Assembly: GCF_019431375.1 (NCBI RefSeq)
Contig: NZ_CP080267.1
Location: 794,080-818,079 of the forward strand
Source: Alcanivorax sp.
GTDB taxonomy: Bacteria > Pseudomonadota > Gammaproteobacteria > Pseudomonadales > Alcanivoracaceae
Direction: 5' to 3'
Length of the DNA stretch: 24,000 nt
Shown: positions 3,632-17,678 of the stretch, in pieces
How positions within the stretch are numbered: the first letter of the stretch is position 1
How the letters are laid out: every line of letters starts with the position of its first letter
Notes under the pieces: generated by a model
What the model was told of the DNA's origin: nothing
Database searches by the model: none
Seen by the model: only the letters and a program-made list of their open reading frames with translations
Translations under genes and position numbers: made by a program

Positions 3632-3840
3632 AGCAGAGCACTGCCGTGCCAGTTGTCCGGCGGCAGCGGGTTGTGGTTGACGTTCTCCAGGCTCGCGCCT
3701 TCGCCCAGGGCGCTCAGCGCGTCAAGCAGCCCCAGATCCACCGTCGCACGGGCGTTCTTGATCGCGGCATAGGGAGCATTTATCCACCCGCCGCTGTTGG
3801 CCACCGCTGCGTAGCCGGTCTTGTCGAAGGTGGGCCAGGC
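3632..3840 (-). pseudogene. 3'-terminal remnant of a paralogue of the gene at 1-1153, truncated by the IS3-family element
   Basis: 3632-3840 aligns to 1-214 with 14 substitutions and one 5-nt indel (my manual count). Homology stops exactly at 3840/3841, where the IS3-like sequence (TG...) begins. Encodes ...ANSGGWINAPYAAIKNARATVDLGLLDALSALGEGASLENVN... versus ...ANSGWWMNIPYAAIKNASATVDLRLLDALSALGEGANLENVN... Confidence 0.7.
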
Positions 3841-8040: not shown

Positions 8041-8077
8041 AAAGGGGGTCATGAGCGGGAGTGTTTAAGGGATCTAG

Positions 8078-8369
8078 GGAGCCTCTGAATAACTCCTTGC
8101 GTACTCAGCGTGGCCTGAAGGGTGCAGCTGTTGTGTTTTGTCGCGACGGGCAGGGTGGTTCCCTTTCCTAGCGACAAAGCGCAGCAGATGTGCCCTTCAG
8201 GCCACGCCCTCCGGGTCTTCCAGGCTGGCCCGCACTCGTTGTTGCGTGTTGAAGGTGAAGAGCCGATGGATCGACATACACCTTCAAAATCGCGCCCTCT
8301 GTGCTCTGCGAGTATAGATTGCGAGCCAGCCTGAAAGACTGAGCATGCAAGGAGTTATTCAGAGGCTCC
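8078..8369. mobile_element. 292-bp MITE with IS5-family-type ends, flanked by a CTAG target-site duplication
   Basis: Perfect 23-bp terminal inverted repeats ggagcctctgaataactccttgc (8078-8100) and gcaaggagttattcagaggctcc (8347-8369). CTAG at 8074-8077 and 8370-8373. The ends resemble the IS5 copy ends (ggaaggtctgaataactc). No transposase-sized ORF inside. Confidence 0.8.
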
Positions 8370-8426
8370 CTAGAGTTCAGATCACTTTTGCTGCTGGCAG
8401 CCCGTAGTACAGACCAGTCAGGGGCA

Positions 8427-9143: not shown

Positions 9144-9361
9144 GCTGTCAGCATGACCCCATGTCCATACTTGGTTGCCAAACGAGTTATCATGGCCTTC
9201 TCTTCCGGTTTCAGCCGTTTCTGGTCCACATAACGCCAGCGGGTTTCATAGAGATGAAACGCCGCTTCCTCGGAGACAAGGCGGTCCGCTCGGTCCCACA
9301 TAATGAGATCCAGTTCGGGGTAGTATTCTCTGTCTATCAAATTTTCCGCCATACTTGTCAT
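9140..9361 (-). CDS. Small (73 aa) protein of unknown family, putative cognate antitoxin of the AbiEii-like toxin
   Basis: 4-nt ATGA overlap with the toxin start (9140-9143). No wHTH/AbiEi-sized domain. Assignment rests on position only. Confidence 0.5.
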   Translation of the reverse strand: MTSMAENLIDREYYPELDLIMWDRADRLVSEEAAFHLYETRWRYVDQKRLKPEEKAMITRLATKYGHGVMLTA

Positions 9362-9439
9362 ACCAAGCTATCCAGAAGACTACTTGCTCACTTTATCAGC
9401 AGCACGGTACGCAGAGCAATTGGGGCTTGTTAGCAGGGT

Positions 9440-9465
9440 GGTTCGCTTGCAAGCAAGCTCCTACA
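9440..9465 (+). repeat. REP element (ggttcgcttgcaagcaagctcctaca)
   Basis: Identical to the copies at 6265-6290 and 22479-22504. Lies just downstream of the prpD stop. Confidence 0.85.
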
Positions 9466-9482
9466 ACAACCCGAAGATGCTG

Positions 9483-10967
9483 TTAATGGGACAACATGTC
9501 CATAAATTCGTTGACTGGTTGAGACTCTAGCTCATCGCGGTCCTGGCACAACTCGAGGATACGTTCGGCTCTCCCCGACGGGAAACAGGTCAGCAGGTTC
9601 TGACGGAATTTGCTTTCCAGAACCGGGATGCCCTCTTCCCTGCGGCGACGGTGACCGATGGGATACTCTACGGCCACCTTGTCCGTGTGGGTGCCATCCT
9701 TGAAGAATATCTGGATGGCATTGGCGATGGAGCGTTTCTCCGGGTCGTGGTAATCCGCTGAATACTGCTTGTCTTCCTGCACCTTCATCTTATCGCGCAG
9801 GGTGTCGATAAGGGGGTGGTTTTTGTGGAAGTCATCCTCGTAGTGCTCGGCAGTGAGCTCACCGAATATCAGCGGTACGGCAACCATGTATTGCAGGCAG
9901 TGGTCCCGGTCAGCCGGATTGGCCAGCGCACCCTGTTTGGAAATGATGCGAATGGCGGAATCGTGGGTGGTGAGTTCGATGCTGTCGATCTGGTCCAGGT
10001 GATCCTTCACTTGAGGATGCAGAGTGACCGCCGCTTCACAGGCGGTCTGGGCATGGAACTCTGCCGGGAAGCTCAGTTTGAAGAGAATGTTCTCCATGAC
10101 GTAGGAGCCATAGTTTCGCTGAAAGCGGAATTTACGCTCCGCGTCGGGTTTTATCTGCTGGTCCTTGTTGGTCTTGGAAAACAGCACATCGTAGAAGCCC
10201 CACTGCTTTGCGGTCAGCGCACTGGGGATGCCCATTTCCCCTCTCAGCGCGATATCGGCCAGCCGCACGGCCCGGCTGGTGGCGTCGCCAGCGGCCCAGG
10301 ATTTTCGTGAGCCTGCGTTGGGGGCATGGCGATAGGTACGCAATGACTGGCCATCAACCCAGGCATGGGAAATGGCGGAAAGCAGCTGTTCGCGATTGGC
10401 GCCCATCATTTTTGCCGCCACGGCCGTGGACGCCACTTTCACCAGCACCACATGATCAAGCCCTACCCTGTTGAATGAATTCTCCAGCGCCAGTACGCCC
10501 TGTATTTCGTGGGCGCGGATCATGGCATCGAGCACGTCTTTCATGGTCAGCGGTGCCCTACCCTGCGCCACTCGCTTCTGGGAAAGGTGATCTGCCACCG
10601 CCAGGATCGCGCCCAGATTATCCGATGGGTGCCCCCACTCTGCCGCCAGCCAGGTGTCGTTATAGTCCAGCCAGCGAACAATGCAGCCGATGTCCCAGGC
10701 GGCTTTGACCGGGTCAAGGCGGTGCAGGGTGCCGGGAACCCGGGCAGCATGTGGGACCAGGGTGCCCTCCACCAGCGGCCCAAGGTGTTTGGTGCACTCG
10801 GGAAACCGCAGTGCCAACAGCCCACACCCCAGGGTATCCATCAGGCAGTGGCGCGCGGTGTCCCAGGCTTCTTCCGAGTCGATACGGTAGTCCAGCACAT
10901 AGTCGGCAATGGCCTGGATTTCCGGGTCGTAATCCGGGCGTTCGTTGCTATCGACGTTGGTAGACAT
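9483..10967 (-). CDS. prpD: 2-methylcitrate dehydratase PrpD (494 aa from ATG 10967)
   Basis: MmgE/PrpD-family sequence of typical length, in prp-locus context. The ORF-track start 11033 is trimmed to [24 protein letters not shown], which has SD aagagg 7 nt upstream. Confidence 0.9.
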
Positions 10968-11040
10968 GATCAAGCCTCTTATTCCCTGGCAAACCCTTTC
11001 TTGATGCAAGCAAGCATCATCTCCCACACACAAACCAGCG

Positions 11041-11556
11041 TCAGAAACAGTCGCCGGGGACCCGTACCCAGCCTTCCATCAGCACCCGTGCGCTGCGGCT
11101 CATGCTGGCCTTGGTGGCAGTCCACTGGCCGTTCACTTGCTGGGCGCCGGCACCGACGCGCAGGGTGCCGGAGGGGTGGCCAAAGGTTACACTGTCACGT
11201 TCGCCGCCACCGGCGGCAAGGTTAACCAGGGTGCCCGGCACTGCCGAGGCACTGGCAATGGCCACGGCGGCGGTGCCCATCATGGCGTGGTGCAGTTTGC
11301 CCATGGACAGGGCCCGCACCAGCAGGTCCACCTCACCTTCCCCAATGTCCTTGCCACTGGAAGCGGTGTAGGCCTTCGGTTTTGCCACAAAGGCAATTTT
11401 GGGGGTGTGCTGACGGGCTTCCGCTTCTTCGATGTTCTCGATCAGGCCCATGCGCACGGCGCCATAGGCACGAATGTAGTCCAGCACATAGTCGGCAATG
11501 GCCTGGATTTCCGGGTCGTAATCCGGGCGTTCGTTGCTATCGACGTTGGTAGACAT
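11041..11556 (-). pseudogene. Chimeric ORF: prpD codons 1-27 (with its RBS) fused in frame to the last 144 codons of prpF
   Basis: 11476-11569 is 100% identical (94 bp) to 10887-10980. 11041-11475 aligns to 12811-13245 (prpF 3' end). The junction reads ...LDY|IRAYGAV... Confidence 0.85.
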
Positions 11557-11615
11557 GATCAAGCCTCTTCTACGCTGGTGGAGGCTTTCAGGATGGGGAC
11601 GTAATCACGTTCAGG

Positions 11616-12032
11616 TCAAGTTTCAATAATAGCCATGGTCGCAGCAGCAAAACCCGTAAAATCATCAAGGTGATGCTTGGCGATAGCGAATACGATGTTC
11701 CAGTCAAGAACATCGTAATTATGGACTGCCATATTCCGAAAACCGACAGATTTCTTCAGCTTCTCGGACAACAATGAAGTGATGATTTCCAGCTGAGCGA
11801 GACGATCGAAGGTCTCCCCCATGGTATTGGGCGGCGGCACATCATGGTCCACCAACAAGTGCGCACCGATATCAACACATAACTGCACGGCGCGACTGAG
11901 ATTCAGAACCAGGATGTCCTGAATGTCGGGGTCATTTTCCAGCACTGAGGCGGTGTCCGGACGTTTGAGTTCCACACGCTTTATACAGCGACGTAAGGAT
12001 TCCAGCTTCCGTTCAATAATCAAGATATCCAT
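11616..12032 (-). CDS. hepT: HepT (DUF86 HEPN) toxin of an MntA/HepT module
   Basis: 138 aa. HEPN motif GFRNMAVHNYDVLDW near the C-terminus. 13-nt overlap with the upstream MNT gene. Confidence 0.85.
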   Translation of the reverse strand: MDILIIERKLESLRRCIKRVELKRPDTASVLENDPDIQDILVLNLSRAVQLCVDIGAHLLVDHDVPPPNTMGETFDRLAQLEIITSLLSEKLKKSVGFRNMAVHNYDVLDWNIVFAIAKHHLDDFTGFAAATMAIIET

Positions 12033-12409
12033 TGCTGTCTCCGCTCGGACAACAAACGGCGAATGGCGGGCAAAAAATCTTCGCTGTTATAGATATGGCG
12101 CTGTATCAGCGCAACATGTTGACTGTCTGAGCCTTTCAGCCGCTTACCATCCCTGAGAATCTCGCCCAAGAGCGGCTCTCCTGCCTGGTTAACGTCGACA
12201 AGATCCACCGGGCGCCCAGCAATACTTGCCAATTTGGCAATTATTTCCATTTTCCTGGGCGCGGAGAGAGGCGCGACCGTCTGAATCGCTACATCAAGGT
12301 CGCTTTGATACTTTTCGCTGCCCTTTGCCATGGAGCCAAAGACATAGGCAAGGCTCACGTCAGATTCGTGATCCAGGTAGTCTCTAACGTGTTCAAGGGT
12401 GGTAGCCAT
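12020..12409 (-). CDS. mntA: MntA nucleotidyltransferase antitoxin (129 aa from ATG 12409)
   Basis: AYVFGSMAKGSEKYQSDLDVAI (GS...D.D). The ORF-track start 12664 runs through REP repeats, so it is trimmed to MATTLEHVRDYL (alternative ATG at 12439). Confidence 0.85.
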   Translation of the reverse strand: MATTLEHVRDYLDHESDVSLAYVFGSMAKGSEKYQSDLDVAIQTVAPLSAPRKMEIIAKLASIAGRPVDLVDVNQAGEPLLGEILRDGKRLKGSDSQHVALIQRHIYNSEDFLPAIRRLLSERRQQWIS

Positions 12410-12650
12410 GCTCGCTCCGCTGGGGTTTGCGACATCCATGATGTTAGCAGAATACGAAGGTAGCAATAAGGTTTTCGCTTCACTGGCCGCTTTTGATTCG
12501 TTAGCCCGAGAGGAAGGCCTTGCCGGTGAGTTAGTGCTTTTGTGGGAGCACATGTTGGCCTGGCAAGGAACAACGCCCGGTATTATCTGGTGCCGTTCTG
12601 AAAAACCTTCTCTGCTCGGGCAATTTGTAAACCCAGCCTCGCTAACGCTC

Positions 12651-12770
12651 GGTTCGCCATGCAAGCATGGGCTCCTACAAAACCTGCCCCCACCGTAGGA
12701 AGCTGCTTACAGGCCAAACTCGCCGTTAGCCTCAAAGCGAAAGAATTCGCCTGCAAGCAACCTCCTACAG
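12651..12770. repeat. Cluster of three REP-family elements downstream of prpF
   Basis: ggttcgccatgcaagcatgggctcctacaa (12651-12680), inverted gtaggaagctgcttacagg (12695-12713), and ttcgcctgcaagcaacctcctacag (12746-12770). Confidence 0.75.
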
Positions 12771-12810
12771 TGGAGCGCTCCTAACAGGCTCTGTTTTTAC
12801 AAAAATCAAC

Positions 12811-13989
12811 TCAGAAGCAGTCGCCGGGGACACGTACCCAGCCTTCCATCAGCACGCGGGCGCTGCGGCTCATGCTGGCCTTGGTGGCGGTCCACTGGCC
12901 GTTCACTTGCTGGGCTCCTGCGCCGACGCGCAGGGTGCCAGAGGGGTGGCCGAAGGTGACGCTGTCCCGCTCGCCGCCACCGGCGGCCAGGTTAACCAGG
13001 GTACCCGGCACTGCCGAGGCGCTGGCAATGGCCACGGCGGCGGTGCCCATCATGGCATGATGCAGCTTGCCCATGGACAGGGCCCGGACCAGCAGGTCCA
13101 CCTCCCCTTCTCCAATTTGCTTGCCACTGGATGCGGTGTAAGCCTTGGGTTTTGCCACAAAGGCAATTTTGGGGGTGTGCTGACGGGCTTCCGCTTCTTC
13201 GATGTTCTCGATCAGGCCCATGCGCACGGCGCCATAGGCACGAATGGTCTCGAACCTCTGCAGCGCCTCCTTGTTTTCGTTGATGTCGCCCTGCAGCTCT
13301 GTACCTGTGTAACCGATATCTTCTGCGTTCACGAAAACCGTAGGAATACCGGCATTGATCATGGTCGCCGGAAAGGTGCCAACGCCGGGGACTTCAAGCT
13401 CGTCGACCACATTGCCGGTGGGGAACATGGCGCCGTCGCCATCTGCCGGATCCATGAAGTCTACCTGCACCTCTGCGGCCGGGAAGGTCACCCCGTCCAG
13501 CTCGAAATCACCGGTTTCCTGGACGTCACCGTTGGTGATCGGTACGTGGGCAATGATGGTTTTCTGGATATTCACCTGCCAGATGCGCACCACGGCAATG
13601 CCGTTCTCGGGAATCCGGTCGGCTGCGACCAGGCCATTGTTGATGGCAAAGGCTCCTACCGCCGCGGTCAGGTTGCCGCAGTTGCCGCTCCAGTCGATGA
13701 AGGGCTTGTCGATGGAAACCTGACCGAACAGGTAATCCACGTCGTGATCGGCGCTGTCACTTTTGGACAGAATCACCGTCTTGCTGGTGCTGGAGGTGGC
13801 GCCGCCCATACCGTCGGTGTGCTTGCCGTAGGGGTCCGGGCTGCCGATGACGCGCAGCAGCAGTTTGTCACGGGCCTCGCCGGGCACCTGGGCCACTTCC
13901 GGCAGATCGGTGAGGCTGAAGAAAACGCCTTTGCTGGTGCCGCCGCGCATGTAGGTGGCGGGGACTTTTATTTGGGGTGCATGGGGCAT
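12811..13989 (-). CDS. prpF: PrpF, 2-methylaconitate cis-trans isomerase (392 aa from ATG 13989)
   Basis: MPHAPQIKVPATYMRGGTSKGVFF... is a typical PrpF N-terminus, and the gene follows acnD. The ORF-track start 14058 lies in GC-rich repeats and is trimmed. Confidence 0.9.
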   Translation of the reverse strand: MPHAPQIKVPATYMRGGTSKGVFFSLTDLPEVAQVPGEARDKLLLRVIGSPDPYGKHTDGMGGATSSTSKTVILSKSDSADHDVDYLFGQVSIDKPFIDWSGNCGNLTAAVGAFAINNGLVAADRIPENGIAVVRIWQVNIQKTIIAHVPITNGDVQETGDFELDGVTFPAAEVQVDFMDPADGDGAMFPTGNVVDELEVPGVGTFPATMINAGIPTVFVNAEDIGYTGTELQGDINENKEALQRFETIRAYGAVRMGLIENIEEAEARQHTPKIAFVAKPKAYTASSGKQIGEGEVDLLVRALSMGKLHHAMMGTAAVAIASASAVPGTLVNLAAGGGERDSVTFGHPSGTLRVGAGAQQVNGQWTATKASMSRSARVLMEGWVRVPGDCF

Positions 13990-14029
13990 GGGGCTTTCCT
14001 GTTCTGTTGGCTTTGTGCTTCGTAGCGTA

Positions 14030-14069
14030 CCCCTCTCCCCCCGCCCCCTCTCCCGCAAGGCGAGAGGGG
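14030..14069. repeat. GC-rich palindromic repeat (cccctctccc...gcaagg.gagagggg type)
   Basis: The hairpin ccctctcccgcaaggcgagagggg recurs at 14137-14160, at 14521-14539 plus 14597-14614 (interrupted copy), and at 14683-14721. Confidence 0.7.
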
Positions 14070-14124
14070 CGCTTTCTTTTCCGGAGTTTGGGGTGACCTG
14101 CGGACCTCGCAGTTGCTACCCTGC

Positions 14125-14487
14125 CTATCTATTCAGCCCCTCTCCCTTTGTCAGAGAGGGATCAAGGGCACTGAAAATCACCTCCAGTACCGCTTCCGTA
14201 TTCTGCAAAATCTCGTTGTTCCAGAAACGCAACACCTGAAAACCTTGTTCTTTCAACCAGGCATCACGCTGTTTGTCGGTTTCACTTTCATTGTGCTGAC
14301 CGCCATCTGCTTCAACGATCAGCCGTGAATTGAAGTGCACGAAATCTGCTATATAAGGCCCTAACGGTTGTTGCCGGCGGAATTTCTGGCCGCTCAGCCG
14401 GTGGGCCCTCAGGTGTTTCCATAACAGTCGCTCAGCGTCTGTCATGTTGGTTCGCAAGTCCTTTGCGAAATGGTGGCGGTAGTCCAT
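14125..14487 (-). CDS. DUF559 (Vsr-like endonuclease fold) domain protein
   Basis: MTDAERLLWKHLRAHRLSGQKFRRQQPLGPYIADFV...LIVEADGGQHNESETDKQRDAWLKEQGFQVLRFWNNEIL is the classic DUF559 pattern. The C-terminal tail is encoded by a GC-rich repeat. Confidence 0.85.
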   Translation of the reverse strand: MDYRHHFAKDLRTNMTDAERLLWKHLRAHRLSGQKFRRQQPLGPYIADFVHFNSRLIVEADGGQHNESETDKQRDAWLKEQGFQVLRFWNNEILQNTEAVLEVIFSALDPSLTKGEGLNR

Positions 14488-14504
14488 TACCGGCCTCCTT
14501 TCGT

Positions 14505-14721
14505 TTTGTGCTTTGTAGCGCCCCCCTCTCCCTGTCCCTTACTCGCTTCGCTCGCCCTACGGGCCGCACTGCGTGCGTTACTCCGCAAGCTCCGTTCCCG
14601 CAAGGGGAGAGGGGACCTTTTAGATAGGCTTTGGGGTAACTGCAACGCTAGCAGTTTATCCCAAACTTCGGGAAAGAAAGCTCCCCTCCCCCCTCGCGGG
14701 GGAGGGGCCGGGGGAGAGGGG
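14505..14721. repeat. Composite GC-rich repeat block between the acnD stop and the DUF559 start, including a nested ~63-bp element (14543-14605)
   Basis: gttttgtgctttgtagcgcccccctctccc... parallels ggctttgtgcttcgtagcgtacccctctccc... at 14009-14040. ggctttggggtaactgca parallels gagtttggggtgacctgc at 14083-14100. The nested unit matches 7973-8040. Confidence 0.65.
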
Positions 14722-14727
14722 GCGGTT

Positions 14728-16429
14728 TTAGCTCGCTTCCGCCATGAAATCCTTGGCGAACTTCTGCAGGATGCCACCGGCGGAATACACGGAGACTTCC
14801 TCGGCGGTATCAAGGCGACACTTAACCGGGACGCGTTCCACATCGCCATTCTGACGGTGGATGACCAGGGTCATGGTGGATCCGGGCGCGCGCTCACCTT
14901 CCACGTCGAAGATCTCGGTGCCATCCAGGCCCAGCGTCTTGCGGGTGGTGCCTTCCTCAAACTGCAGAGGCATGACGCCCATACCGATGAGGTTGGTACG
15001 GTGGATGCGCTCGAAACCTTCGGCAACAATGGCTTCAACCCCTGCCAGTGCCACGCCTTTGGCCGCCCAGTCACGGGACGAGCCCTGGCCGTAGTCAGCG
15101 CCGGCGATGATGATCAGCGGCTGCTTGCGGTCCATGTAGGTTTCGATGGCTTCCCACATACGCTTCACTTCGCCTTCCGGCTCAACCCGGGCCAGGGAAC
15201 CCTGGATCACGTTGCCCTGCTCGTCCTTGACCATTTCGTTGAACAGTTTCGGGTTGGCCAGGGTGGCGCGCTGGGCGGTCAGGTGATCACCACGGTGCGT
15301 CGCGTAGGAGTTAAAGTCCTCCTCCGGCAAGCCCATCTTGTCCAGATAGGCACCAGCGGCACTGTCCAGCAGGATCGCATTGGACGGCGACACAGGTGCA
15401 CGGGCCTCAGCCATGGTGCCTTCCCAGTACTTGGCGTAGGTTTTCCACCAGCGCCACCTGCTTGTCTTCGCGGCCGGTTAGCTTCAGGTATTCCAGGGTG
15501 TTGTCGTCGATGAAGAACATGCCCGCGGTGGCGCCATACTCGGGCGTCATATTGGCAATGGTGGCGCGGTCGCCCACGGACAGGCTGTCGGCGCCTTCAC
15601 CAAAGAATTCCAGGTAGGCACCAACGACACGCTCGCGACGCAGGAATTCAGTGATCGCCAGTACCAGGTCAGTACCATTAATGCCGGGACGCAGTTTGCC
15701 GGTGAGCTCCACGCCGACAATGTCGGGCAGACGCATCATGGACGGGTTGCCCAGCATCACGTTCTCGGCTTCCAGGCCGCCCACGCCCACGGAGATCACG
15801 CCGAGCGCATCCACCATGGGGGTGTGACTGTCGGTGCCGACACAGGTATCCGGATAGGCGACACCATCACGGACCTGTACCACAGGAGACATCTTCTCCA
15901 GATTGATCTGGTGCATGATGCCGTTGCCCGGCGGGATCACATCCACGTTATCAAAGGCGGTCTTGGTCCAGTTGATGAAGTGGAAACGGTCTTCGTTGCG
16001 GCGCTCTTCCACCGCCCGGTTTTTCTCGAAGGCGTTCTCTTCAAAGCCCGGGTGCTCAACGGCCAGGGAGTGATCCACGATCAGCTGGGTGGGCACCACC
16101 GGGTTGACTTTAGAGGGGTCACCACCCTGCTCGGCAATGGTATCCCGCAGCCCGGCCAGGTCCACCAGTGCGGTCTGGCCAAGGATGTCATGGCAGACCA
16201 CCCGGGCCGGATACCAGGGGAAATCCAGATCACGCTTGCGCTCAATCAGCTGCTTGAGCGAATCAGTCAGCGCTTCCGGCGCGCAGCGGCGTACCAGCTG
16301 CTCGGCAAGAATACGTGAGGTGTACGGCAGTTTGTCATAGGCCCCAGGCTGGATCGCATCGACGGCCGCACGGGTGTCGAAATACTCCAGCTCGGTGCCG
16401 GGAAGGGGTTTGCGGTATTCGGTGTTCAT
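14728..16429 (-). pseudogene. acnD: acnD (Fe/S-dependent 2-methylcitrate dehydratase, aconitase family) with a frameshift and a ~300-codon internal deletion
   Basis: Two ORFs: 15407..16429 (340 aa, [23 protein letters not shown]...CVGTDSHTP...) and 14728..15414 (228 aa, ...SPSNAILLDSAAGAYLDKMGLPEEDFNSYATHRGDHLTAQRAT...IIAGADYGQGSSRDWAAKG...). The total of 568 aa compares with about 865 aa expected. Domain 3, which carries the cluster Cys ligands, is absent. Confidence 0.85.
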
Positions 16430-16477
16430 AGCCTGGGACTCTTGTTCAGGGGGAATCCTGGGTTTAAGGAGTGCGCT

Positions 16478-16543
16478 TTCGCGATGCGAGCATCGCTTCC
16501 CACAGGCGTAGTCGTCTGTGGGAAGTCATGCTCGCATGACGAA
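16478..16543. repeat. Convergent pair of REP-variant elements forming a long hairpin between prpC and acnD
   Basis: ttcgcgatgcgagcatcgcttcccacagg (16478-16506) and ctgtgggaagtcatgctcgcatgacgaa (16516-16543) are near reverse complements. Confidence 0.8.
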
Positions 16544-16547
16544 GCCT

Positions 16548-17678
16548 TTAGCCACGCTCGGCGATTGGCGTTACCTTGCGCAGTTCCGGACCGGTGTACT
16601 CGGCACTCGGACGGATGATGCGGTTATCGGCACGCTGCTCGAACACGTGGGCGGCCCAGCCAGTCAGGCGGCTCATCACGAAGATCGGTGTGAACAGCTT
16701 GGTGGGAATGCCCATGAAGTGGTACGCAGACGCATGGAAGAAATCGGCGTTACAGAACAACTTCTTTTCGCGCCACATGACTTCTTCACAACGCACGGAT
16801 ACCGGGTACAGCACAGTATCGCCCACATCATTGGCCAGCTTTTCGGACCAGTGCTTGATGATGGCGTTGCGCGGATCAGATTCGGTGTAGATCGCGTGGC
16901 CGAAGCCCATGATCTTTTCCTTGCGCTCCAGCATGCCCAGCATTTCTTTTTCGGCGTTATCCGGATCAGAGAATTTCTCGATCATGTCCATGGCCGCTTC
17001 GTTGGCGCCGCCATGCAGCGGACCACGCAGAGAGCCAATGGCACCGGTGATGCAGCTGTGCAGATCACTCAGGGTGGAGGCACAAACACGGGCGGTAAAG
17101 GTGGAGGCGTTGAACTCGTGCTCTGCATAGAGGATCAGGGACACGTTCATCACCCGCTCGTGCAGCTCGTTGGGCTTTTCGCCACGCAGCAGGTGCAGGA
17201 AGTGAGCGCCGATGGAGTCGTCATCGGTTTCCGGATCGATCTTCACGCCATCGTGACTAAAGCGGTACCAGTAACAGATGATTCCGGGGAAAGCGGCCAG
17301 CAGACGATCGGTGGCATCTTCCTGTTGGCTGAAATCGGTTTCCGTTTCCAGGTTGCCCAGCATGGAGCAGCCGGTACGCATCACGTCCATGGGATGGGCG
17401 TCCTTGGGAATCTGCTCGAGGACGGTTTTCAGCGCATCGGGCAGGCCGCGCAGGCTTTTCAGCTTGGCCTTGTAGGTAGCCAGTTGGTCCTGGGTGGGCA
17501 ATTCGCCTTTCAGGATCAGGTGTGCCACTTCCTCGAACTCACAGTTCTCGGCCAGATCTTTCACATCATAACCACGGTAGGTCAGGCCGGAGCCGCTCTT
17601 GCCAACGGTGGAGAGAGCGGTTTTGCCTGCTACCTGGCCACGCAGACCTGCGCCGCCTACTTTTTTGCCTTCTGCCAT
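16548..17678 (-). CDS. prpC: 2-methylcitrate synthase PrpC (376 aa)
   Basis: Citrate-synthase family sequence (GPLHGGANEAAM, MGFGHAIY) of PrpC length, between prpB and acnD. Confidence 0.92.
   Translation of the reverse strand: MAEGKKVGGAGLRGQVAGKTALSTVGKSGSGLTYRGYDVKDLAENCEFEEVAHLILKGELPTQDQLATYKAKLKSLRGLPDALKTVLEQIPKDAHPMDVMRTGCSMLGNLETETDFSQQEDATDRLLAAFPGIICYWYRFSHDGVKIDPETDDDSIGAHFLHLLRGEKPNELHERVMNVSLILYAEHEFNASTFTARVCASTLSDLHSCITGAIGSLRGPLHGGANEAAMDMIEKFSDPDNAEKEMLGMLERKEKIMGFGHAIYTESDPRNAIIKHWSEKLANDVGDTVLYPVSVRCEEVMWREKKLFCNADFFHASAYHFMGIPTKLFTPIFVMSRLTGWAAHVFEQRADNRIIRPSAEYTGPELRKVTPIAERG

Follow-up and report, generated by a model that had tools for sequence, protein, structure and literature searches.

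Probable insertion of a foreign prpF fragment with a 94-bp target duplication at the 5′ end of prpD in an Alcanivorax sp. chromosome

We analysed a 24,000-nt stretch of DNA from Alcanivorax sp. (hereafter the window; contig NZ_CP080267.1 of assembly GCF_019431375.1, forward positions 794,080-818,079), in which the intact prpD gene is preceded by a chimeric open reading frame (ORF) that joins the first 27 codons of prpD to the last 144 codons of prpF. The structural variant is real, very recent and strain-specific, and the DNA inserted in it is foreign, having come from a related lineage without the mntA-hepT cassette (lineage D). Its probable origin, in our assessment, is illegitimate recombination that placed 495 bp of a foreign allele at an ectopic site, with a 94-bp duplication of the target. 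The variant is a recombination accident, and neither a new gene nor a new system.

Anatomy of the prpF-prpD interval

On the minus strand, genes follow the order prpF, mntA, hepT, a 59-nt native prpD leader, the chimeric ORF and prpD (Table 1). The cassette between prpF and prpD conforms to a type VII MntA-HepT system: the nucleotidyltransferase and HepT-like genes are adjacent and overlap by 13 nt, and sister contigs conserve the pair. The two copies of the prpD start match at 94 of 94 positions, and comprise an AAGAGG SD motif, a further 7 nt, and 27 prpD codons from the ATG. The upstream copy runs on without a break from the resident hepT-prpD leader, and the region that contains it is 100% colinear with four sister contigs (L004, L005, L007 and L010). 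The downstream copy is the true 5′ end of prpD, which remains intact because the duplication regenerates both SD and ATG; prpD is identical to that of L005 in protein and DNA sequence. The upstream SD and ATG now head the 171-codon fusion ORF. Between the two copies lies the insert, made up of the prpF codons and stop followed by a 60-nt intergenic piece with a REP-like hairpin (GATGCttgcttGCATC).

An earlier note on this DNA, made from the letters of the sequence, had described the repeated prpD start (13 nt with the SD plus 27 codons) joined, with the frame kept open, to the final 144 codons of prpF, the gene order with a 60-nt spacer and a full prpD downstream, and an open frame of 171 codons that uses the prpD SD and start. 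All of these were recovered here. An exact 94-nt repeat together with a 435-nt repeat at 93.6% identity would lie far beyond what chance could be expected to produce.

Transposable elements carry a transposase, terminal inverted repeats or both, and generate target-site duplications of 2-15 bp. Insertion of such an element was rejected as an explanation for the locus: the inserted DNA is part of a housekeeping gene with 60 nt of intergenic sequence attached, 94 bp of the target are duplicated, and a repeat search of the window returned no inverted repeats at the insert ends.

Table 1. Features of the prpF-prpD interval and divergent tracts (window coordinates)
Feature	Position	Strand	Details
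Resident prpF, full-length	13989->12811	-	392 aa; Pfam PrpF, 572 bits
mntA-hepT toxin-antitoxin pair	11616..12409	-	Between prpF and prpD; resident
mntA	12409->12020	-	129 aa; Pfam Polbeta/NTP_transf_2
hepT	12032->11616	-	138 aa; Pfam HepT-like
Upstream 94-nt target duplication copy	11476..11569 (read 11569->11476)	-	prpD -13..+81; 5′ end of the chimeric ORF
Chimeric ORF PrpD(1-27)::PrpF(249-392)	11556->11041	-	171 codons + stop; from ORF list and translation
J1	11475..11476	-	prpD codon 27 / prpF codon 249, GGACTAC/ATTCGTGCC; three-way alignment with resident prpD and L096
Inserted fragment, 495 nt	10981..11475	-	prpF codons 249-392 and stop (11475->11041), then 60 nt intergenic (11040->10981)
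J2	10980..10981	-	Lineage-D intergenic nt 60 / prpD -13, GCCAGGGAAT/AAGAGGC
Downstream 94-nt target duplication copy	10887..10980 (read 10980->10887)	-	True 5′ end of intact prpD
prpD, intact	ATG 10967, stop 9483	-	494 aa; Pfam MmgE_PrpD_N and MmgE_PrpD_C
Divergent tracts vs L002/L092	9792-10503, 13300-13381, 15439-15551, 16292-17043

Foreign origin of the insert and the empty-site allele

The insert is identical to positions 138-632 of contig L096 at 494 of 495 nt (99.8%), its 60-nt "spacer" included, and the only difference is a non-synonymous GAA to GAC change at window position 11347. L096 is a single 2.7-kb metagenome contig and the only known representative of lineage D, which has no mntA-hepT cassette. 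The earlier note had taken the two prpF segments of the window to be near-identical; however, the prpF part of the insert differs from the 3′ end of resident prpF (12811-13245) at 28 of 435 nt (93.6% identity). The first 98 nt are identical, all 28 differences fall within the next 337 nt, and 26 of them are synonymous, with one Q to D codon (Sd = 26, Nd = 2, dS = 0.283). The resulting dN/dS of 0.02 points to divergence in a functional full-length gene elsewhere, and not in a truncated duplicate. Identity of the insert to sister strains is 92.9-94.6%. Nine of the insert variants (nt 186-330) also occur, independently, in the sister contig L001, so the insert-type allele circulates in the population. 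The last 435 nt of resident prpF and the 60 nt downstream are themselves 100% identical to four relatives (L002, L003, L006 and L093). The only resident DNA that is truly duplicated is the 94 nt of the prpD 5′ end. The donor may also have been a second prp locus of lineage-D type elsewhere in the same genome, our analysis covering the 24-kb window.

The empty site is preserved in sister contig L005, to which the window is identical at 3747 of 3747 nt once 589 bp are removed. The arrangement prpF-mntA-hepT-59 nt-prpD, with the chimera absent, was found in all 17 contigs with the same HepT and all 7 with the same PrpF, and contigs L001-L010 have prpF, mntA, hepT and prpD arranged as in the window. 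The cassette is absent from L094, L095 and L096, and in L011 and L012 a short intergenic region separates prpF from prpD. The chimera is unique to this strain: no identical protein is recorded in databases, a PrpD N-terminus on PrpF-like proteins occurred in 0 of 2538 matches, no database protein spans both parts, and a 24-mer across J1 was not found in metagenome contigs.

These comparisons bear on the earlier note's explanation of the locus as a tandem duplication of the resident prpF-3′/prpD-5′ junction. The head-to-tail topology would fit such an event, a prpD-5′/prpF-3′ joint is the junction type so made, and the first 98 nt past J1 match resident prpF, where outgroups differ at 15-19 sites. 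As in spontaneous tandem duplications with a chimeric ORF at the novel junction, there are direct repeats, the 5′ part of the downstream gene runs straight into the 3′ part of the upstream one, and instability is expected via recombination between the repeats; deletion between the 94-nt copies would restore the L005 structure. However, the resident DNA duplicated here amounts to 94 nt and the other 495 nt are foreign, the insert being far closer to L096 than to its resident counterpart. The two prpF copies, which would be near-identical in a young duplication, stand at dS 0.28, while the flanks on both sides are 100% identical to the empty-site contig; comparison with sister strains, which the note had proposed as a check, speaks against duplication in situ. 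The spacers are unrelated as well (one is 1.24 kb long and contains mntA-hepT, the other is a 60-nt lineage-D sequence that is not resident intergenic DNA), and a duplication of the resident junction would have included mntA-hepT. Instead of the single novel junction expected, there are two relative to every recovered relative. In its simple form, the explanation is contradicted by the copy divergence, the L096 match and both novel junctions. In a multi-step form, a cassette-less ancestor would have undergone a tandem duplication of 589 bp, and recombination with cassette-carrying DNA would later have replaced the upstream unit; this requires a crossover within 94 nt or less plus an unsampled 73-nt spacer. 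Across both forms, we regard in-situ duplication as very unlikely.

Junctions and possible routes of joining

At J1, microhomology is limited to 1 nt (prpD ...CTAC / prpF ...GACC) and the reading frame runs on from prpD codon 27 into prpF, which agrees with the earlier description of this joint as illegitimate and essentially homology-free. J2 is a second novel junction because, in L096, the 60-nt piece and the prpD SD are separated by an additional 192 nt. These nucleotides, missing in the window, include the native prpD leader that is also present in the resident hepT-prpD spacer. J2 borders an imperfect repeat that matches at 17 of 26 positions (CATCAAGAAAGGGTTTGCCAGGGAAT versus CATCCTGAAAGCCTCCACCAGCGTAG). 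Both junctions are known from one assembly.

Under ectopic insertion, the recipient would be an L005-type chromosome carrying mntA-hepT, and the donor a lineage-D fragment that starts at prpF codon 249 and ends 60 nt after the prpF stop. The fragment would have landed in the 5′ end of resident prpD, with a direct duplication of prpD -13 to +81 as its flanks and with both junctions illegitimate, J1 at a single nucleotide of microhomology and J2 at the edge of imperfect homology. The likeliest route would be double illegitimate recombination or template switching on imported DNA: a nascent strand may have copied prpD to +81, switched onto the foreign fragment, and then rejoined the chromosome 94 nt behind. 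We infer both the entry route of the DNA and the exact mechanism of joining. For none of the mechanisms named here is a target duplication of 94 bp a documented hallmark, as far as could be verified in the literature compared.

Double illegitimate recombination (DIR) was reportedly described in Acinetobacter baylyi by Hülter and Wackernagel in 2008. The locus has its traits in that J1 shows 1 nt of microhomology, J2 sits at a 17/26 imperfect match, and relative to L096 there is no contiguous homologous anchor. Short-patch DIR (SPDIR), also of A. baylyi (Harms et al. 2016, as summarised in bioRxiv 10.1101/2023.11.22.568220), is given in that summary with patches of 3 to ~100 bp and a laboratory frequency of ~1e-12 to 1e-13 per cell. 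In the accounts as summarised, the donor in DIR/SPDIR may be extragenomic, and a joint at a stretch of imperfect homology such as J2 is a shared feature. However, the 495-bp insert exceeds the SPDIR patch size and would need a long-segment DIR class, microhomology at J1 is a single nucleotide, and the verified features of DIR/SPDIR do not include a 94-bp target duplication. Those events were also obtained in the laboratory, whereas the present one is from a natural isolate or assembly.

Homology-facilitated illegitimate recombination (HFIR) is a RecA-dependent process that occurs during natural transformation. Its joints typically have 3-10 nt of microhomology, according to the summary in PMC6382021 of work by de Vries & Wackernagel 2002, Prudhomme et al. 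2002, and Meier & Wackernagel 2003. In keeping with HFIR, the foreign DNA is that of a related donor, and at least one illegitimate joint lies beside homology (here, the prpD 5′ end). However, the single nucleotide at J1 falls below that range, and the target is duplicated here, not deleted. Compared with L096, the sole sampled donor, the insert also has no contiguous homologous anchor: the 94 nt of prpD 5′ sequence are identical in donor and recipient, but lie 192 nt from the insert in L096, and no lineage with a 73-nt spacer was found among the sequences recovered.

Should an unsampled lineage have a 73-nt prpF-prpD spacer, the second illegitimate junction would be unnecessary. One illegitimate junction and one homologous crossover would then suffice with a donor from a cassette-less lineage D′ with this spacer natively (marked by the k-mer GCCAGGGAATAAGAGGCTTGATCATG), either through a circle of prpF codon 249 to prpD codon 27 that entered the chromosome by one Campbell-type crossover within the 94 nt of prpD homology, or through one-sided HFIR anchored on prpD. 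A single crossover of a circle yields exactly such a structure, in which a copy of the homology borders the donor-specific DNA on either side. Lineages scarcely differ over the first ~100 nt of prpD (1 difference, at +87), and a crossover there would therefore leave no trace; the 26-nt imperfect repeat could, in addition, have removed the 192 nt in some D-type lineage. Yet a pattern search of metagenome contigs found no prpF stop followed by a prpD ATG 60-85 nt later, and the recovered cassette-less relatives all have 166-265-nt spacers in which the native prpD leader (CTTGACC...CCTGAA[A/G]GCC) is kept. A homology of 94 nt is short for a RecA-dependent crossover, and J1 would still have just 1 nt of microhomology. 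We consider a D′ donor possible, if unlikely.

Template switching of the FoSTeS/MMBIR type is known mainly from eukaryotes, and from stress-induced amplification in E. coli. It shares with the locus a short duplication plus an insertion templated by a second molecule, and joints that show zero to a few nucleotides of microhomology, and a second complex lesion nearby, in acnD, is compatible with serial switching. By this analogy, the joints would have been made by synthesis rather than ligation.

An assembly or library artefact, in the form of a chimeric contig from a sample that mixed cassette-carrying and cassette-less lineages, seems to us improbable. Both lineages are found in marine metagenomes, the junctions and fusion protein are unique to this assembly, and the acnD lesion, with a +1 in an A-run, is another oddity in the window. 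However, the partners joined at J1 and J2 have no k-mer-length sequence in common, and a graph mis-join therefore cannot produce them. To arise as an artefact, the structure would require a pair of chimeric joints separated by 495 nt, with the same locus regained precisely 94 nt back and in frame. A PrpF identical to the resident one is, moreover, encoded on a 3,966,100-nt contig, which we presume to be of the same genome and to be a finished assembly, not a fragmented co-assembly.

The chimeric ORF and its recombining background

The chimeric ORF scores 185.8 bits against Pfam PrpF (PF04303; gathering cut-off 27 bits) over residues 27-169, a match that takes in only positions 231-371 of the 371 in the profile. 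In So-PrpF, the N-domain spans residues 5-185 and the C-domain ~184-379, with K73 and C107 as catalytic residues (PMC5690661). By alignment to 2PVZ, the fragment in the chimera begins at approximately So-PrpF residue 256, and the two-domain DapF-like architecture with K73 and C107 is not present: the N-domain, both residues, and ~72 residues (one third) of the C-domain are missing. The chimera is probably inert for these reasons, and the expressed PrpF domain with a dominant-negative effect that the earlier note had envisaged is unlikely. Judging from sequence, the fusion ORF is probably a by-product that is translated yet without function.

That the chimera is a selected small protein, such as a dominant-negative or regulatory PrpF fragment, we find highly improbable. 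Its SD, ATG and frame are all intact, and it is probably transcribed because it lies inside the operon. However, besides the missing domain and residues, it is a singleton absent from the contig with identical flanks, its sole change relative to the donor is non-synonymous, and acnD, the source of PrpF substrate, is broken here.

The window is near-identical to L002 and L092 except for short tracts at ~5-8% divergence (Table 1), and the patch at 13300-13381, inside resident prpF, is of L096 type (lineage D). Short discontinuous imports are typical of natural transformation (PMC13344027). The insert would be one among several short imports from diverged lineages in the prp operon. In the same operon, acnD has a similar complex deletion, a second illegitimate scar that directly adjoins one of the divergent tracts. 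It resembles the classical HFIR outcome, with an imported tract on one side and recipient DNA deleted at the illegitimate end. The gene is broken in this strain, and a homopolymer error is possible at the A-run. The acnD product supplies the substrate of PrpF.

Anatomy of the chimeric locus and its empty site

The ORF list and Pfam matches place the region in a prp (2-methylcitrate) operon on the minus strand, in which a chimeric ORF of 171 codons lies between the mntA-hepT cassette and prpD (see table). The 94 nt from 11569 to 11476 (AAGAGG, 7 nt, ATG and 26 further codons) are identical to those from 10980 to 10887, and the second copy opens an intact prpD of 494 amino acids. Past the first junction (J1, 11476/11475; GTGCTGGACTACATTCGTGCCTAT), the last 144 codons of prpF and its stop follow in frame, and then 60 nt up to the second junction (J2, 10981/10980; GCCAGGGAATAAGAGGCTTGATC). 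The junction peptide reads ...ADYVLDY/IRAYGAVR..., and the Pfam match of the chimera is restricted to positions 231-371 of the PrpF profile. The anatomy described in an earlier note (a 94-nt repeat, a prpD-5'/prpF-3' joint and a 171-codon ORF) was borne out base for base; the note was also right to call the joint illegitimate and the ORF chimeric, with 1 nt of microhomology at J1 and an open frame. Toxin-antitoxin-type modules bracket prpD, with mntA-hepT upstream and the 73-aa and AbiEii nucleotidyltransferase genes downstream, and a VapB-like gene lies still farther along in sister contigs.

Features of the prp region and tracts diverging from close relatives (window positions)
Feature	Position	Strand	Basis
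GntR regulator	19457-18762	minus	ORF list, Pfam
prpB	18689-17802	minus	ORF list, Pfam
prpC	17678-16548	minus	ORF list, Pfam
acnD, broken (ORF remnants)	16429-15407 and 15414-14728	minus	ORF list, Pfam
DUF559 gene	14487-14125	minus	ORF list, Pfam
prpF	13989-12811	minus	ORF list, Pfam
mntA-hepT	12409-11616	minus	ORF list, Pfam
Chimeric ORF	11556-11041	minus	ORF list, Pfam
prpD	10967-9483	minus	ORF list, Pfam
73-aa gene and AbiEii gene	9361-8427	minus	ORF list, Pfam
Divergent tracts	9792-10503, 13300-13381, 15439-15551, 16292-17043		Window vs L002/L092

Exact-protein look-ups led to contigs of relatives through HepT (17 contigs), PrpF (7) and PrpD (1). Every spanning contig carried prpF, mntA-hepT, 59 nt and prpD, with no chimera and an AcnD of 863 amino acids. 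In blastn comparisons of the window with these contigs, identity was 99-100% across 11476-14623, 97.6-99.9% for positions up to 10989, and only 92.9-94.6% in the chimera's prpF portion. Removing 589 bp (the insert and one 94-nt copy) from the window reproduced the sister contig L005 (Logan, SRR15039771) at 3747 of 3747 nt. The nearest species representatives, Alcanivorax hongdengensis and an Alcanivorax MAG, have prpF separated from prpD by a short intergenic stretch, with PrpF at 92-93% protein and about 80-85% nucleotide identity; they were rejected as close comparators given their distance (84% nucleotide identity or less) and serve as outgroups only.

The variant is a singleton on one assembly. 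The J1 24-mer had 0 matches in metagenome contigs, exact look-ups returned no record of the 171-aa chimera or the 228-aa AcnD C-fragment, and a PrpD N-terminus occurred on 0 of 2538 PrpF-like proteins. One database protein of the PrpF cluster (P0132, 171 aa) was considered as a second chimera and rejected, as its N-terminus is MCIRDS and its remainder ordinary PrpF, with no PrpD N-terminus; we take MCIRDS to be adapter-derived sequence at a contig end. That the singleton is an assembly or library artefact is unlikely: the partners at either junction lack common sequence on which an assembler could go wrong, library chimeras would not be expected to come back through two joints to the original locus, precisely 94 nt back and in frame, and a 3.97-Mb contig, presumed to be the finished assembly of the window's own genome, carries the exact resident PrpF.

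Origin of the insert and the second junction

The prpF 3' ends of the resident gene and the chimera share 98 identical nt and then differ at 28 of 337 positions. All but two of these differences (26) are synonymous third-position changes, and the other two lie in a single codon (CAA/GAC, Q/D). The resulting values (dS = 0.283, dN = 0.006, dN/dS = 0.02) fit the pattern expected of allelic copies of a full-length, functional gene, not that of a freely evolving truncated duplicate.

Three contigs without the mntA-hepT cassette were reached through members of the PrpF C-terminus cluster. One of these, L096 (JGI 3300049904), which represents a donor-type lineage D, matched the window from 11475 to 10981 at 494 of 495 nt (435 nt of prpF and the 60-nt "spacer"), and on this identity we regard the whole 495 nt as an allelic fragment from lineage D. 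The sole difference, GAA to GAC at 11347, is non-synonymous (E to D); the resident codon at this position is CAA (Q), giving three alleles (Q/E/D) at one PrpF position. Lineage D is 93.8% identical to the resident sequence over the prpF 3' end and 90.8% over prpD. A resident origin of the insert, first inferred from the 98 identical nt after J1, was rejected, as L096 is identical there too. The sister contig L001 independently has nine of the insert variants (nt 186-330), and the resident prpF patch at 13300-13381, common to L001, is L096-type; D-type DNA therefore recombines into this population. In L094 (8001-9068; ENA ERZ27295509), also cassette-less, PrpF (P0133, 355 aa) is missing 37 internal residues, in frame, between two ...TFPA repeats (GVTFPA/GVGTFPA), so damage to prpF also occurs elsewhere in the group.

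Between the 60-nt piece and AAGAGGCTTGATCATG, L096 has 192 more nt, which hold a REP-like element and the native prpD leader CTTGACCTGAACGTGATTACGTCCCCATCCTGAAAGCCTCCAGCAGCGTAG; the leader is also present in the resident hepT-prpD spacer, with a recognisable version in L094 and L095. These 192 nt are missing from the window, which reads GGGAAT/AAGAGG at 10981/10980, and J2 is therefore a second novel junction, bordering an imperfect repeat of 26 nt (17/26). The arrangement thus reads as a 94-nt target copy, a 495-nt foreign fragment and a 94-nt target copy, not as two tandem units. It is possible that an unsampled lineage with a native short spacer was the source, in which case one illegitimate junction and a crossover in the 94-nt homology would suffice; a pattern search for such a spacer (prpF stop, 60-85 nt, prpD ATG) gave 0 matches in metagenome contigs. 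The in-situ tandem duplication of the prpF-3'/prpD-5' junction proposed in the earlier note is not supported, since the divergence of the prpF copies is far too large given flanks identical to the empty-site relative, and both the near-identity of the insert to a foreign lineage and the presence of J2 argue against it. Topology alone may suggest tandem duplication where horizontal insertion occurred, and copy divergence set against sister genomes settles the choice between the two.

Probable recombination with diverged DNA

The window is almost identical to L002 and L092, contigs of relatives, save for short tracts of about 5-8% divergence, the one in prpD being shared with L005 and not L096-type. 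Imported DNA that recombines typically leaves such a discontinuous mosaic (PMC13344027). The tracts point to import from diverged lineages, either repeatedly or in several tracts at once, and the 495-nt fragment would be one further import, inserted at an ectopic site through two illegitimate joints: if synthesis left prpD at +81 for the foreign fragment and re-entered prpD at -13, a duplication of exactly 94 bp would result. An origin from a transposon or IS was rejected on the lack of terminal inverted repeats, the housekeeping-gene content and the 94-bp duplication.

We infer that the variant works like three known processes, namely double illegitimate recombination and its short-patch form (DIR/SPDIR), homology-facilitated illegitimate recombination (HFIR) and replicative template switching; it is assigned to none of them because none of the three families fits completely. 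In DIR/SPDIR, ectopic single strands find (extended, imperfect) microhomologies at a replication fork, anneal there and become part of the nascent strand (bioRxiv 10.1101/2023.11.22.568220); the insert here (495 nt) is larger than SPDIR patches. HFIR joints typically have 3-10 nt of microhomology (summarised in PMC6382021), whereas J1 has 1 nt, and the sampled donor L096 offers no contiguous anchor. The variant is a recombination event of a known kind and a well-resolved natural case in which foreign allelic DNA was integrated ectopically. Its value is modest and lies in how closely its parts are known: the empty site at 100% identity, the donor lineage at 99.8% and the two joints to the base; comparable illegitimate events are otherwise known mostly from laboratory selections (about 1e-12 per cell).

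In comparison with L091, deletions of 840 nt and 56 nt have removed part of acnD, and a 33-nt island (15398-15430) survives between them. The lesion occupies 15393-15440; the gene has also gained TG, and one A in an A-run adjoining a divergent tract (15441-15551) that directly abuts the deletion junction. AcnD residues 333-613 and 624-643 are gone, the frame is broken and the Pfam Aconitase match ends at profile position 261 of 463; the protein is intact in all relatives. Judged from its sequence, acnD is a pseudogene, and given the deletion and frame break the AcnD/PrpF branch of the 2-methylcitrate cycle is predicted to be dead in this strain, with the PrpD branch intact. In the classical HFIR outcome, an imported tract stops where recipient DNA has been deleted, and the tract that ends at the acnD deletion supports the view that both lesions, the acnD scar and the prpD insert, are side-products of recombination with diverged DNA. 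A single recombination between a cassette-less donor and a mntA-hepT recipient might have left the chimera, the 13300-13381 patch and the acnD deletion beside its own imported tract as its footprints, the normal outcome (allelic replacement with loss of the cassette) being lethal or disfavoured and only aberrantly resolved (template-switched or illegitimately joined), cassette-keeping recombinants surviving; we consider this very improbable. If true, the locus would document in nature how a toxin-antitoxin module shields its own site from replacement, and would also be a record of multi-switch, chromoanasynthesis-like repair in a bacterium.

Fate of the chimera and intergenic elements

The chimera keeps the prpD SD and ATG inside the operon. 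No promoter-like sites were found in 9300-14200, terminator-like sites there were at or below shuffle expectation, and no Rfam families were found in the window. Translation is likely, given the SD and ATG, the operon position and the lack of a convincing separating terminator or promoter. The product would join 27 residues of the PrpD N-terminal tail to an incomplete domain. In an alignment to 2PVZ, its PrpF part begins at about residue 256 of Shewanella oneidensis PrpF, a protein whose N-domain spans residues 5-185, whose linkers are E180-N183 and I379-M380, and whose catalytic residues are K73 and C107 (PMC5690661). The chimera would therefore be without the entire N-domain, both catalytic residues and about 72 C-domain residues, so that what had been proposed as an expressed PrpF domain is an incomplete fragment.

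The chimera is almost certainly an inert by-product, with prpD preserved, and the variant has little importance for gene function. Selection of the chimera for a function of its own is very improbable: it is missing from a contig identical on both flanks (L005), its lone change from the donor is non-synonymous, and AcnD, the maker of the PrpF substrate, is broken in this strain. The variant is expected to be unstable, since recombination between the 94-nt repeats would precisely delete the insert and restore the L005 structure.

REP-like palindromes (of the TGTAGGAG...GCTTGC...GCGAA type) fill intergenic regions at 12680-12790, 9442-9465, 8073-8374 and 10990-11030, and contigs of relatives break at such elements. 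One lies within the 60-nt foreign spacer (GATGCttgcttGCATC). L094, L095 and L096, which have no mntA-hepT, have REP-containing spacers instead, and prpF and prpD are also separated by a short spacer in L011 and L012. At 14624-14710, an insertion of ~87 nt that is not in sister contigs is flanked by an 11-nt direct repeat (CCCCTCTCCCC). With this insertion, the DUF559 gene is flanked by 94-nt inverted repeats (14038-14131 and 14621-14714; 77% complementary), and the insertion looks like a MITE/REP-like element tied to DUF559.
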